The position numbers and the translations under genes were made by a program. DNA of 64,000 nucleotides from a candidate division WOR-3 bacterium (lineage in GTDB: Bacteria; Hydrothermota; Hydrothermia; Hydrothermales; JAJRUZ01): assembly GCA_039804025.1 (NCBI GenBank), contig JBDRZP010000005.1, positions 28,273 to 92,272 on the forward strand, given 5' to 3'. Under the pieces are notes generated by a model. The model searched no databases. It was given only the letters and a program-made list of their open reading frames with translations, and was not told the origin of the DNA. Shown piece by piece: positions 4,426 to 8,915 of this stretch (within the stretch, counting starts at the first letter, position 1; each line of letters begins with the position of its first letter).

Positions 4426-5352
4426 TTATCTATAAACTCCCCTTTTTATATTATCTGTTGTTCCAAAAGTTTTTTTGTGTTCTTCAAGCAATTTTTCAAA
4501 ATATGAATCTACCATTTTCTGGATTTCATTTATCTCTTCTTCCTTTAAATGTTTGAATCTTCCCTGAATCTGAAAGTATTCCTTTAAGGGGAGTCCCTTT
4601 GGCATATAATTTATTTTAATTTTATCACCATCTTCTACTTCATATAAGGGGAAAAATTTTGTTTCAACTGCAAGTCTTGATGCCTTTATTGTAAGTTCAG
4701 AATCCATTCTCCATCCAGGGGGGCATGGAGCAAGAACATGTATGAATCTTGTTCCTTTTATTTCTTTAGCTTTTTTTACCTTATTATAAAGATCAAGGGG
4801 AAAGGCAACTGTTGCTGTCGCAATATAGGGAATTCTATGTGCCCTCATAATTTCAACTATATTCTTTTTAGGTCTTGGATTAGGACTTTCAAAAGGTGTT
4901 GTGGTTGTCCAGGCTTTATAAGGAGTTGCCCCTGACCTCTGAATACCTGTATTCATATAAGCCTCATTGTCATAACATATATATAGAATGTCTTCATTTC
5001 TCTCAGCTGCTCCGGATAATGCCTGAAGTCCAATATCAAAGGTTCCTCCATCACCTGCGAAGGCAAGGACATTTATGTCTCTCTTACCTTTTATATTCAG
5101 TCCTGCTCTTATTCCAGTTGCAGTTGCTGCTGCTGTTTCAAAGGCAGTATGGAAAACTGGAACTTTAAGGGAGTGGTATGGATAGGGTCCATCAATTATT
5201 GTCCAACAGCAGGCTGGAATAGTAGTAATAGTATTTTTACCAAGGGCTTTTAAAACATGCTTCATTGTTATAACTGCACCACAGCCCTGGCATGATAAAA
5301 CACCGGGATTTAAAACTTCTTCCTGTAAAAGTTCTCCCCATTCAAAAACCAT
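4426..5352 (-). CDS. porB: Pyruvate/2-oxoacid:ferredoxin oxidoreductase beta subunit (TPP-binding)
   Basis: SCQGCG, AGDGGTFDIGLQALSGA, CYDNEAYMNTGIQRS, LAPCPPGW; SD GGAGGG upstream. Confidence 0.92.
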   Translation of the reverse strand: MVFEWGELLQEEVLNPGVLSCQGCGAVITMKHVLKALGKNTITTIPACCWTIIDGPYPYHSLKVPVFHTAFETAAATATGIRAGLNIKGKRDINVLAFAGDGGTFDIGLQALSGAAERNEDILYICYDNEAYMNTGIQRSGATPYKAWTTTTPFESPNPRPKKNIVEIMRAHRIPYIATATVAFPLDLYNKVKKAKEIKGTRFIHVLAPCPPGWRMDSELTIKASRLAVETKFFPLYEVEDGDKIKINYMPKGLPLKEYFQIQGRFKHLKEEEINEIQKMVDSYFEKLLEEHKKTFGTTDNIKRGVYR

Positions 5353-5364
5353 TTTTTTCCCTCC

Positions 5365-6564
5365 TTATAAGTTTATATTTTCTTCCTTTAATCCCCAGAA
5401 AATAATATCCTCGGAAGTTTTTCTTTTTTCTGCATCTTTTATTATCCCATAAACATCAGAAGGTGTTATATCCCTTCCACCAAGACCTACAATATATCCA
5501 ATAAGTTTTGGTTTTTTTCTTGATGTGTAAAGGGAAGATCTTATTTCGTTAAAGAAAACACCACCAAGCCCAAAGGATATATTTCTATCCATAACAATAA
5601 CTTTTTTTCTTCCTTCAAGGAGTTCTCTTACTTTATTGAAGGGGAAGGGTCTTAAAACTCTTATTCTCAACACACCGATTTTTTTATTTTCATTTTTTCT
5701 TATTTTATTTACAGTATATTTAACAGTTGAGGAAATTGCTCCTGAACTTACAATCACGGTTTCAGCATCATCCATCATAAATTCCTCAACAAGTCCCCAT
5801 CTCCTTCCGAATTTTTTCTCAAATTCTTCACCAGCTTTTTCAATTTCATAAAGTGCCGTTTCCATTGCCTTTTGAATTTTATAGCGAAATTCCATATAAG
5901 GACCTGAAGGAGAAACAACCGCACCTATTGCAAAGGGATTTTCAGGAGAAAGTGCCCAGGGCAAATCAAGGGGTGGCAAAAATTCATCTACCTCTTCCTG
6001 ATCAGGTATTTCAACTGGTTCAGCAGTATGGGACAAAATAAAGGCATCAAGAACAATCATTGTAGGAAGAAAAACTCTTTCTGAAACCTTGTAGGCAAGT
6101 ATAACAGAGTCAAGAACTTCCTGATTGGATTCACAGTAAATCTGCATCCAACCTGTATCTCTCTGTGAGATTGTATCATTTTGATCAGACCATATTGACC
6201 ATGGAGCTCCAACAGCTCTATTAATTGCTGCCATGACAATAGGCAATCTATCACCTGCTGCCCAGTGTAAAAGTTCATGCATTAAAAGCAATCCCTGTGA
6301 TGATGTTGCTGTAAAGGTTCTTGCACCAGTTATACTTGCACCGATGCAAACAGCCATTGCTGAATGTTCTGATTCAACATTTACAAAAGTTGCATTTAAT
6401 TCCTTTTTACCGCACATTTCTGATAGAAGTTCAACAACCTGAGTTTGTGGTGTTATTGGATAGGCTGATATAACCTCTACCCTTGATAACTTAACTCCAT
6501 AAGAAACTGCGTGATTGCCATATAAAACTTTTTTTGTTTTCTTTTCAATTTTTAATTTTTCCAT
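5365..6564 (-). CDS. porA: Pyruvate/2-oxoacid:ferredoxin oxidoreductase alpha subunit
   Basis: GNHAV, AYPITPQT, ESEHSAM, TATSSQGL, GLGGRD motifs. Confidence 0.93.
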   Translation of the reverse strand: MEKLKIEKKTKKVLYGNHAVSYGVKLSRVEVISAYPITPQTQVVELLSEMCGKKELNATFVNVESEHSAMAVCIGASITGARTFTATSSQGLLLMHELLHWAAGDRLPIVMAAINRAVGAPWSIWSDQNDTISQRDTGWMQIYCESNQEVLDSVILAYKVSERVFLPTMIVLDAFILSHTAEPVEIPDQEEVDEFLPPLDLPWALSPENPFAIGAVVSPSGPYMEFRYKIQKAMETALYEIEKAGEEFEKKFGRRWGLVEEFMMDDAETVIVSSGAISSTVKYTVNKIRKNENKKIGVLRIRVLRPFPFNKVRELLEGRKKVIVMDRNISFGLGGVFFNEIRSSLYTSRKKPKLIGYIVGLGGRDITPSDVYGIIKDAEKRKTSEDIIFWGLKEENINL

Positions 6565-6583: not shown

Positions 6584-8248
6584 TTAAACCATCTGAATTA
6601 TTCCCCTTGGACACTCTTTCGCACAAATACCACAACCTTTGCAAAAATCGTAGTCTACAGAGGGTCTATTATCCTTCCATAATATTGACATATCAGGACA
6701 ATAAACAAAACAATTTCCGCAGGAATTACAATAACCACAGGAAAAACACCTTTTTGCTTCTTTTATAGCCATTTCTTCTTGTAAAGTTTTTACCTCCTCA
6801 TCAAAGGTTTGTATTCTTTCTTCTACAGATAGCTCAAAAGGATGAACTGCTTTTTCTTTATTAAAATAATCAGTATTTATAAGCATAAAGGAAACAGTTT
6901 TTGGTGGAGCTTCCCTTACATTTATATCTTCACCTTTTAGAAATCTATCAATACTTTCAGCAGCTTTTTGAGCCCAAGATTCAGCCTCAACAACTGTTGA
7001 AGGACCCTGAATAAAATCTCCGCCAGCAAAAACACCTTTAACTTTCATAGCTCCTGTCTTTTTATCAGCAAAAGGCCATCCATCATCACCAAGATATTCG
7101 GAAGGTAAAGCGCTTCTATCAGCCTCTTCACCTATTGCCTTTATTACAAAATCATACTCCTCTTCATAAACTGCACCCTCAATAGGAATTGGTCTTCTTC
7201 TTCCTGAAGAATCAGGTTCTCCAAGTTGCATTTTCTGTAGAGTTAAAACAATTTTATCATTTTTCTTCTGAGCTTTTATCGGAAGAACTAAAAGATGAAA
7301 TGGAATCCCATCGCTTTTTGCTTTTTCTCTTTCTTCTTCAAGAGCAGGCATTTCTGCTTCAGTTCTCCTGTAAAGTATTTCTGGATTTGCTTTAATTCTT
7401 TTGAGTGTTCTCACAACATCCATTGCTACATTACCTCCTCCTATACAGGCTACCTTTTTACCTATGAATTTTGAGATATCTTTTCCTTCATTAACTTCCT
7501 TTAAAAAATGTAATCCTGAGAGCATTAAATCTTCACCCTCAATTTTCATTTTCTTTTCAACCCATGCTCCAATAGCAATAAAGATAGCATCAAATTTATC
7601 CCTAAGTTCATCTATGGAAAAGTCTTTTCCGAGTGCTTTATTTGTTTCAATTTTTATTCCCATTTTATAAAGCATATCAAACTCTCTATCCAGAATATCC
7701 TTGGGTAATCTGTAGGAAGGAATTCCATACCTTAATACTCCACCAGGAAGAGATTCTCTTTCATAAATTGTAACAGAGTGTCCTTTTATCCTTAAAAAGT
7801 AAGAAGCAGCCATTCCAGCTGGTCCAGAACCTATTACTAATATTTTTTTACCTGTATCCGAAGGGATTTCCTTTATTTTATATCCCCTATTAAGAATATA
7901 ATCACCTACGAATCTTTCGAGTTCTCTTATTGAAATTCTTTCATCGAACCTTTTTCTGTTACATCCGATCTGGCAAAAGGCAGGACAAACTCTTCCTGTT
8001 ATTGCTGGAAAGGGATTTTTTTCAAGTAAAATATCAGCTGCTCTATCAAGGTTTTTTTCAATAATATAAAAAAAATACTGTGGAATTTTTGTCCCTAAAG
8101 GACATGCTTTTGAACAGGGTGCAGCTTTATCTTCTATTACAGGTTTTAAATTTTTCCATGAACCTGTTTTTAAAACTTTTGTTGAACCCGTCGAAAGAGC
8201 AACTTCTGGTAATTCATTGATATCTTTATAAGAAATTCTTTTATCCAT
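6584..8248 (-). CDS. PorD-like ferredoxin fused to a GltD-like FAD/NAD(P) oxidoreductase module
   Basis: N-terminal KTGSWKNLKP (PorD-type); CSKACP and GRVCPAFCQIGCNR Fe-S motifs; GSGPAG (FAD); GGGNVAMD and YRR (NADPH); C-terminal CNSCGNCFVYCP and DYDFCKGCGICAKECP. Confidence 0.88.
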   Translation of the reverse strand: MDKRISYKDINELPEVALSTGSTKVLKTGSWKNLKPVIEDKAAPCSKACPLGTKIPQYFFYIIEKNLDRAADILLEKNPFPAITGRVCPAFCQIGCNRKRFDERISIRELERFVGDYILNRGYKIKEIPSDTGKKILVIGSGPAGMAASYFLRIKGHSVTIYERESLPGGVLRYGIPSYRLPKDILDREFDMLYKMGIKIETNKALGKDFSIDELRDKFDAIFIAIGAWVEKKMKIEGEDLMLSGLHFLKEVNEGKDISKFIGKKVACIGGGNVAMDVVRTLKRIKANPEILYRRTEAEMPALEEEREKAKSDGIPFHLLVLPIKAQKKNDKIVLTLQKMQLGEPDSSGRRRPIPIEGAVYEEEYDFVIKAIGEEADRSALPSEYLGDDGWPFADKKTGAMKVKGVFAGGDFIQGPSTVVEAESWAQKAAESIDRFLKGEDINVREAPPKTVSFMLINTDYFNKEKAVHPFELSVEERIQTFDEEVKTLQEEMAIKEAKRCFSCGYCNSCGNCFVYCPDMSILWKDNRPSVDYDFCKGCGICAKECPRGIIQMV

Positions 8249-8261
8249 TTTTTTTCCTCCT

Positions 8262-8819
8262 TTATAATCCTTTTACACTTTGAAATGCCTCTTCAGCTGC
8301 TTTTATATTTTCTTCTTTTTTAACAGAAACTTCTTCCTCTATTGCATATTTTAATTCTTCAAGTCCAAAAATCTTGCTTACCTTTGCAAGGGCTCCTAAA
8401 ATTGAGGTATTCACAATTGGTTGAGTTCTTGAACCGAGCTTATACTTGACAGCAATTTCTGTTGCATCAACTGTGTAAACTTTAAATTTTCCTTTAAAAT
8501 TAAAGTCTTCTGGATTTTTAGGTGAATTTATTATTATTTTTCCATTTTCTTTAAGACCTTCTGTAACATCTATCATTTCAAGAAGTGATGTATCAAGAAT
8601 TACAATAATATCAGGGTTATATATATTACATCTTAAAAAAAGTTTTTCATCAGGACTAAAGATTCTCAAAAAAGCTGTTACAGGTGCCCCTCTTCTTTCA
8701 ACTCCAAACTGAGGAAAGGCAAGGGGATAGTAGCCACTTTTAAAAGCTGCTATTGCACTTACCTTTGAAGCTACTACTGCCCCCTGACCTCCCCTCCCAT
8801 GGAATCTAATTTCAATCAT
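8262..8819 (-). CDS. porC: Pyruvate/2-oxoacid:ferredoxin oxidoreductase gamma subunit
   Basis: [35 protein letters not shown]; start moved to ATG 8819, after SD AGGAGG. Confidence 0.93.
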
Positions 8820-8853
8820 TTTAAAATCCCTCCTTTTTTTCAAATTTAGAGCC

Positions 8854-8915
8854 GGATTTGAACCCTCCGCGGAAAGATTTTTTAAAATTATATGATTTTA
8901 TTTAATTTTTTTCAA
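8854..8915 (-). promoter_or_regulatory. Sigma70-type promoter of the por operon with a T-loop-like leader element
   Basis: TTGAAA(8915-8910)-17 nt-TATAAT(8892-8887); GGTTCAAATCC at 8864-8854 in the leader. Confidence 0.75.

Follow-up and report, generated by a model that had tools for sequence, protein, structure and literature searches.

A four-gene operon in the window (the whole 64,000-nt stretch of WOR-3 DNA analyzed here) encodes, as judged from its proteins, a variant of the four-subunit POR/VOR-type OFOR, given a large delta subunit that carries an insert. In this subunit, designated delta*, PorD is split in two by a flavoprotein cassette of the GltD/NfnB kind. The complex is probably a CoA-dependent 2-oxoacid:NADP+ oxidoreductase, with a predicted leaning to branched-chain or broad substrates.

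Gene order and the divided delta subunit

The genes for gamma, delta*, alpha, and beta are encoded together on the minus strand, with intergenic gaps of 12 to 19 nt (Table 1), and the delta function would be provided through the split ends of delta*. The usual stand-alone delta measures ~90 to 105 aa, whereas delta* with its insert has exactly 554 aa. The TPP, proximal-cluster, and CoA P-loop (HGRGGQG) motifs are all intact in the operon proteins, and gamma matched Pfam POR (E = 6e-36) and passed TIGR02175. An AGGAGG-like ribosome-binding site is visible 5' of gamma, sigma-70-like sites being no more numerous in this region than in shuffles, and the leader contains a sequence resembling a tRNA T-loop (window positions 8854 to 8870). 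A frameshift or assembly artefact was ruled out, since the ORF is full length in both close and distant relatives; the closest named relatives belong to Ca. Hydrothermales (80 to 81% identity). A glutamate synthase small subunit was also ruled out, as delta* scores below the GltD cut-offs and the large subunit was not found nearby.

TABLE 1 Features of the operon, in window coordinates
Feature	Position	Strand	Details
Candidate sigma-70 promoter 5' of gamma	8887..8915	-	TTGAAA-17-TATAAT, 11/12, consensus match only
Gamma subunit (PorC/VorC type, CoA-binding domain III)	8262..8822	-	186 aa from ATG at 8822
Delta* (predicted delta-flavoprotein fusion, PorD split by permuted GltD/NfnB cassette)	6584..8248	-	554 aa
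PorD N-terminal half	8123..8248	-	Residues 1-42; ELP...KTGSW..xP and first ferredoxin strand; rejoin test
Inserted cassette (GltD/NfnB type, circularly permuted)	6734..8122	-	Residues 43-505; Pfam Fer4_20 and Pyr_redox_2
Permuted segment	6734..6835	-	Residues 472-505, ER..F.E...EA.RCFSCG; corresponds to N-terminus of canonical GltD/NfnB
PorD C-terminal half	6584..6733	-	Residues 506-554; eight invariant Cys, medial and distal clusters
Alpha subunit (PorA/VorA type)	5365..6564	-	399 aa; YPITP, ESEHSA, and NRA intact; substrate loop NRAVGAPWSIWSD
Beta subunit (VorB/PorB type)	4426..5352	-	308 aa; TPP motif GDG...NEAYMNTG; proximal-cluster Cys21, 24, 49, 210

Pfam domains Fer4_20, Pyr_redox_2, and a C-terminal Fer4 were identified in delta*, which scored above the cut-offs of both NF009410/PRK12771 ("NAD(P)-binding protein"; 531.5 versus 516) and the PorD model TIGR02179 (66.5 versus 60.05), the TIGR02179 and NF040684 matches falling at residues 501 to 554. 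Its motifs include TGSWKNLKP (residues 28 to 36), GGGNVAMD (270 to 277), YRR (293 to 295; codons at window positions 7364 to 7372), and DYDFCKGCGICAKECP (532 to 547). An HMM was built from 30 plain WOR-3 PorD proteins, and residues 1 to 42 of delta* were joined to residues 507 to 554 for comparison with it. The rejoined halves scored 95.0 bits as a single continuous domain aligned end to end, versus 62.9 bits for the C-part alone (N-part alone, E = 1e-7) and 66.9 +/- 3.0 bits (maximum, 75.9) for 200 joins with a shuffled N-part. Across 54 homologues, the N-part contributes 18.5 to 34.7 bits, and residues T28, W31, and P36 are invariant among 87 homologues. Judged by these profile scores, the split of PorD exceeds chance. 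A simple tandem GltD-ferredoxin fusion is ruled out by the rejoin test. A second operon on contig C13 of the same genome has a plain 93-aa PorD and serves as an internal control. The preliminary description of this DNA had assigned a 554-aa protein to the delta place in an operon ordered gamma-delta-alpha-beta and had read it as a PorD split by an insert; both readings stood up.

Of the 61 GltD-like proteins with TGxW at the loci read, 60 adjoin four-subunit POR genes and a separate small PorD is near none of them, versus 2 of 84 GltD-like proteins without TGxW that have four-subunit POR neighbors; these counts include kin and near-duplicates and are a description with no statistical test attached. 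Most often the genes are arranged as gamma-delta*-alpha-beta; gamma-alpha-beta-delta* is also seen, and natural gamma-delta* gene fusions occur (P0027, L178, and L181). Certain WOR-3 families carry the fusion with no plain PorD match; in family f5, the fusion was found in 4/5 and a plain PorD match (E <= 1e-22) in 0/5. In sequence and position, delta* takes the place of PorD in the operon as the putative delta subunit. One WOR-3 operon of the same VOR-like alpha/beta subfamily (L159, 4639 to 7540; genome G014) has a plain 99-aa delta and is a natural cassette-free control, possibly through cassette loss. The sole split-PorD protein with no POR neighbor in the fetched DNA (L027, 920 to 3448; genome G005) is followed by an RnfB-like Fe-S protein.

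The complex prediction was made for the beta-delta* pair and gave an ipSAE of 0.94 (best control, 0.00), contacts agreeing at >=96% between runs and a partner pLDDT of 91; the mark applied is reached by 58 of 80 solved pairs and 2 of 110 mismatched pairs, and a textbook pair such as this one would be expected to pass through its resemblance to solved PFORs such as 9BT4, so that the score speaks of likeness, not of binding. The modelled beta interface involves both PorD halves (residues 17 to 31 [17 to 28 and 31] and 508 to 545). Because the nearest beta contacts surround C517 and C536 to C542 in the model, cysteines C507/510/513/546 would form the distal, ferredoxin-exit cluster. Both the docking to beta and the choice of the delta cluster that is turned toward it are modelled features. 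Cassette ligand C504 lies three residues from the delta distal-cluster C507.

It is very improbable, in our view, that delta* is instead a free DsrL-like NADPH:acceptor oxidoreductase whose gene merely lies in one operon with those of a three-subunit OFOR that has no delta. OFORs without domain V do exist (PMC13768988), and the full architecture of delta* is identical to that of DsrL; it aligns over 548 aa at 40% identity with a DsrL whose gene follows dsrAB. However, delta* keeps the PorD-specific TGxW segment that is absent in DsrL (gain, 33 versus 6 bits), TGxW predicts POR neighbors, and the model places the two PorD halves against beta.

The permuted cassette and the predicted reaction

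The preliminary description had also recognized a complete GltD/NfnB-like module between the PorD halves; complete it is, but not in the normal order. The usual GltD/NfnB N-terminus, with two cluster cysteines, is placed at the end of the insert, where residues 472 to 505 matched an HMM of canonical GltD/NfnB N-termini (E = 3.4e-9). When these residues were moved before residue 41, the canonical-HMM score rose from 382.4 (core) to 417.4 bits, versus 386.5 +/- 2.7 bits (maximum, 401.2) in shuffled controls. As far as the alignments go, the insert is a complete GltD/NfnB cassette in circularly permuted form, like that of StnC/NfnA.

The cassette has an Fe-S domain (C45, C49, C88, C92, C96, and E111), the FAD site GSGPAG, and an NADP site comprising GGGNVAMD and YRR. 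With the NfnB ligand list (PMC7596348) as the guide, C45/C96/C501/C504 map to the cassette distal cluster, to which the 472-505 segment provides C501 and C504, and C49/C88/C92/E111 map to the FAD-proximal cluster. No variation was seen among 87 homologues in any of the 15 Cys or in GxGxxG, GGGNxAxD, and YRR, and 85 of the 87 keep E111; a few homologues (L093, L108, and L174) lack YRR, which is the NADP(H)-specificity mark in NfnB and DsrL-2 (PMC7596348). In total, delta* is predicted to carry four [4Fe-4S] clusters, FAD, and an NADP(H) site. It was modelled confidently with AlphaFold (pLDDT 93.4, pTM 0.90). NfnA 9N5U, StnC 8OH5, and NfnL 5JCA are its best PDB matches, StnC and NfnA being nearest in both sequence and fold, with a VIA Z of 42.8 and an rmsd of 2.1 A across 465 residues for 8OH5_C. 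A single [4Fe-4S] cluster would staple both ends of the insert together, and this could be the reason why 463 residues are tolerated in a ferredoxin loop. The insertion would thus be tolerated, and wired as it is, because the cassette is circularly permuted, and the permutation offers a simple rule for how a single flavin cassette plugs into many Fe-S wires.

Decarboxylation on TPP and the binding of CoA by gamma are established for any OFOR. The complex would be an (alpha-beta-gamma-delta*)2 CoA-acylating 2-oxoacid oxidoreductase in which delta* doubles as an NADP(H) flavoprotein. TPP on beta/alpha would decarboxylate the 2-oxoacid, gamma would bind CoA, and single electrons would pass from the beta proximal cluster to the delta medial (C517/536/539/542) and distal clusters, and onward through the cassette distal and proximal clusters to FAD, which would hand a hydride to NADP+ at the YRR site. 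We infer that the electron wire through delta* is continuous, that the FAD is non-bifurcating, and that NADP+ is the physiological acceptor; free ferredoxin may be a side acceptor. By textbook values, the proposed reaction runs from ~-500 mV to ~-320 mV and is strongly downhill, and the complex would therefore be a one-way NADPH source. The anabolic direction, with NADPH electrons driving 2-oxoacid synthesis from acyl-CoA and CO2, seems to us extremely improbable: OFORs are reversible and NADPH is the donor for DsrL-2 (PMC7596348), but NADPH is by textbook potentials ~150 to 180 mV too positive for carboxylation without bifurcation, and WOR-3 bacteria are described mainly as heterotrophs (PMC12285271).

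Both catalytic subunits lean, narrowly, to the VOR type. Beta scored 404.3 with the VorB model PRK11864 (cut-off, 405) and 376.5 with the PorB model PRK11865, and alpha scored 439.6 (VorA) and 431.7 (PorA), both below cut-off; the plain operon of the same genome has the opposite preference (Vor versus Por, 315 versus 391 and 374 versus 426). The substrate loop reads PW(S/N)(I/V)W in most fusion-linked alphas, a W-form that presumably resembles the loop of Pyrococcus VorA, and PINIH in plain WOR-3 PORs and PINIW in 9BT4. Branched-chain or broad-range 2-oxoacids from peptides are somewhat likelier substrates than pyruvate alone, and the genome also has the separate plain-PorD operon of pyruvate type.

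Neither G6PDH nor PntB nor a further GltD/NfnB protein was found in the genome (95.6% complete); NADPH could also come from malic enzyme, an Iso_dh-family dehydrogenase, and ELFV-family dehydrogenases, and the fusion is the sole GltD/NfnB-type protein in the genome's own order. A role of the fusion as a substitute for Nfn as NADPH source across WOR-3 was not supported, an NfnB-type gene being present in 24 of 40 carriers versus 108 of 161 non-carriers. Contigs C1, C2, C8, C13, and C25 carry no fewer than six further OFOR gene sets (plain POR, KorAB types, a Vor/Oor type beside hdr genes, and IOR), but of stand-alone small ferredoxins with CxxCxxCxxxC only one was seen, at C13, 18768 to 19037.

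Delta* could also sit in the complex while its distal cluster trades mainly with free ferredoxin, the flavin module serving the entire cell as a tethered ferredoxin:NADP+ reductase that drains the other OFORs too. This arrangement would suit a genome with several ferredoxin-reducing OFORs, a small ferredoxin, and no other NfnB/GltD, as well as the location of NfnB-family ferredoxin sites at these clusters (PMC10482914) and the NifJ-linked relatives, which must work in trans. We nevertheless hold it to be rather unlikely, since the cassette joins at the distal cluster, presumably the usual ferredoxin dock, and an intramolecular downhill path should beat a diffusible carrier. It is compatible with the direct NADP+ reduction that we favor, and the two are not exclusive.

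An FAD that acts like the NfnB b-FAD together with an extra high-potential partner would allow flavin-based bifurcation or confurcation, for example, in reductive carboxylation or in the conversion of a 2-oxoacid plus NADH to 2 NADPH from 2 NADP+. The NfnB-type Glu ligand (E111; Lys in StnC) and the flavin-adjacent Arg R180 are kept, as this would have it, but the same Glu and Arg occur in DsrL, which is not known to bifurcate. GltD shares them as well, and we know of no bifurcation by GltD. An NfnA/NfnS-type or HydBC-type gene was found in the operon at none of the loci read, and the sole PF10418 protein in the 95.6% complete genome is PyrK beside PyrD. In addition, the permuted cassette of StnC is a non-bifurcating NADPH/Fe-S exchanger, its FAD feeding a linear cluster chain (PMC10482914). 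Taken together, bifurcation by delta* is quite improbable.

If direct NADP+ reduction is true, many anaerobe genomes annotated with [quoted passage not shown] would encode a one-way NADPH-making 2-oxoacid dehydrogenase. Redox and energy reconstructions would change, the electrons of delta* bypassing ferredoxin-driven hydrogenases and ion pumps, and the operon would be a four-gene ferredoxin-free path to acyl-CoA and NADPH that is usable in engineering, with a thermophilic copy attractive for assay.

Distribution and relatives of the fusion

The fusion, expected in other genomes by the preliminary description, indeed turned up in 40 of the 201 WOR-3 genomes that were searched, in many Desulfobacterota (three copies in some), and in metagenomes. 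The NF009410/PRK12771 family has no assigned function and also gathers DsrL, NifJ-linked proteins, and multidomain cassette carriers. In Alphaproteobacteria, family members with a decayed TGxW precede nifJ. Because NifJ retains its own ferredoxin domain, the flavoprotein beside it must act in trans, and the family can also serve as a separate redox partner. Clusters of a PRK12771 protein, nifJ, and a dihydroorotate dehydrogenase-like gene were identified in alphaproteobacterial plasmids (L073, 6920 to 13246, and L074, 6941 to 13230).

Phylogenies of the fusion were built by quick methods for the cassette and for alpha. The split-PorD proteins did not form one group in the cassette tree, where at least four changes are forced; NifJ-linked proteins and one DsrL were placed among them, and the delta* cassette grouped with a 781-aa multidomain carrier. 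In the alpha tree (no bootstrap), the fusion operons stood apart from plain WOR-3 operons, with the plain-delta operon L159 inside them at weak support.

The cassette was also seen inside a molybdopterin-enzyme FAD subunit (PF00941/PF03450) in P0088 and related proteins of 780 to 790 aa, and an IOR alpha subunit and a POR beta subunit each carry a fused module of related type (L183 and L109). On these occurrences, the module is mobile and has many hosts. In several WOR-3 families, not including this genome, the operon directly follows a gene that by eye is fabH-like (3-oxoacyl-ACP synthase III; L190 to L199 and L209). Such a neighbor would fit the supply of an acyl-CoA primer and NADPH to fatty-acid synthesis.

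Comparison with known systems

NADP-linked OFORs as such are not new, and the split-PorD design is common, its architecture appearing uncharacterized. The preliminary description had known of no biochemistry for such a fusion, and no characterized example was found in the literature searched, most subscription papers lying outside it; GltD, glutamate synthase, and flavoprotein subunits go unmentioned in the 2026 PFOR-diversity review (PMC13768988). The candidate NADP-linked OFOR of the preliminary description holds as a candidate, with the split PorD, the permuted cassette, the neighbors, and the beta docking model in its favor and NADP+ reduction as the deduced step. The circular permutation, the DsrL-identical architecture, the lean of alpha and beta to the ketoisovalerate (VOR) type, and the NADP-reducing OFOR precedents had been missed.

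Four-subunit POR/VOR enzymes (PorCDAB and VorCDAB; PDB 9BT4) share with the present operon the gene order, the catalytic motifs, and a delta with two [4Fe-4S] clusters and TGxW. However, a 463-aa flavoprotein cassette divides delta*, and NADP+ is therefore expected to replace ferredoxin as the acceptor.

The 2-oxoglutarate:NADP+ oxidoreductase (KGOR) of Azoarcus evansii (Ebenau-Jehle, Boll, Fuchs 2003) has a GltD-family subunit and reduces NADP+, as cited in PMC10134865. The delta* operon likewise has a GltD-family subunit within an OFOR. The Azoarcus enzyme reportedly has three subunits, is specific for 2-oxoglutarate, and has a two-subunit catalytic core of the KorAB type. Such a core is not matched here (alpha, 121 versus 483 for TIGR03710; beta, 57 versus 262 for TIGR02177). 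A gltD-korA-korB locus (L121) encodes a canonical unpermuted GltD, with the PorD halves absent.

In the NAD-linked phenylglyoxylate dehydrogenase PadEFGHI, an OFOR is wired to pyridine nucleotide via an added flavin module. The eukaryotic pyruvate:NADP+ oxidoreductase (PNO; Euglena and Cryptosporidium; cited in PMC13768988) is also an OFOR wired to pyridine nucleotide in this way. Pad and PNO differ from the delta* complex in having other flavin modules, and all four subunits are far under the Pad cut-offs.

In StnC/NfnA of the Bfu-type NfnABC transhydrogenases (8OH5, 9BOV, and 9N5U), this permuted cassette likewise sits within an Fe-S wire. Its host there resembles NuoG/Fdh and has a bifurcating module of HydBC type, and the proximal ligand is Lys; in delta*, the host is PorD, such a module is absent, and the ligand is Glu. 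NfnAB (NfnSL) differs in its domain order, which is permuted in delta*, and in the NfnA/NfnS partner gene, absent here; delta* scored 313.9 with TIGR01316, below 471.75.

DsrL (type 2), the NAD(P)H:acceptor oxidoreductase partner of DsrAB, has its domain order, YRR, and a permuted RCxSCG in common with delta*, and both pass PRK12771. The shared layout consists of an N-terminal Fe-S domain, FAD and NAD(P) folds, a linker, and a C-terminal 2[4Fe-4S] domain. The differences are that the delta* gene is not linked to dsrAB, that the partner is an OFOR, and that TGxW is kept. DsrL-like genes linked to pyruvate/ketoisovalerate oxidoreductase genes were noticed and excluded by Löffler 2020 (PMC7596348), whose third criterion for DsrL is the absence of such linkage; delta* is embedded in a POR/VOR operon. 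The DsrL of the dsrA-dsrB-dsrL locus L080 (1560 to 5632), the one that is 40% identical to delta*, has a permuted RCMSCG segment and pairs with the split-PorD protein L170 in the quick tree (98 SH-aLRT). Löffler 2020 also described DsrL as being without one or both N-terminal Cys of the distal cluster (PMC7596348), and the one DsrL examined here suggests that the "linker" supplies the two distal-cluster Cys reported missing from the N-terminus. The permutation thus leads to a testable revision of DsrL cluster ligation. We tentatively extend this to a possible, if doubtful, wider picture: the operons would form a widespread class of self-contained branched-chain 2-oxoacid:NADP+ oxidoreductases with a mobile permuted cassette on the PorD ferredoxin-exit cluster, the split-PorD flavoprotein would be the source of DsrL and of the NifJ-linked partners, and the DsrL "linker," in supplying the missing distal-cluster Cys, would be tethered, not flexible.
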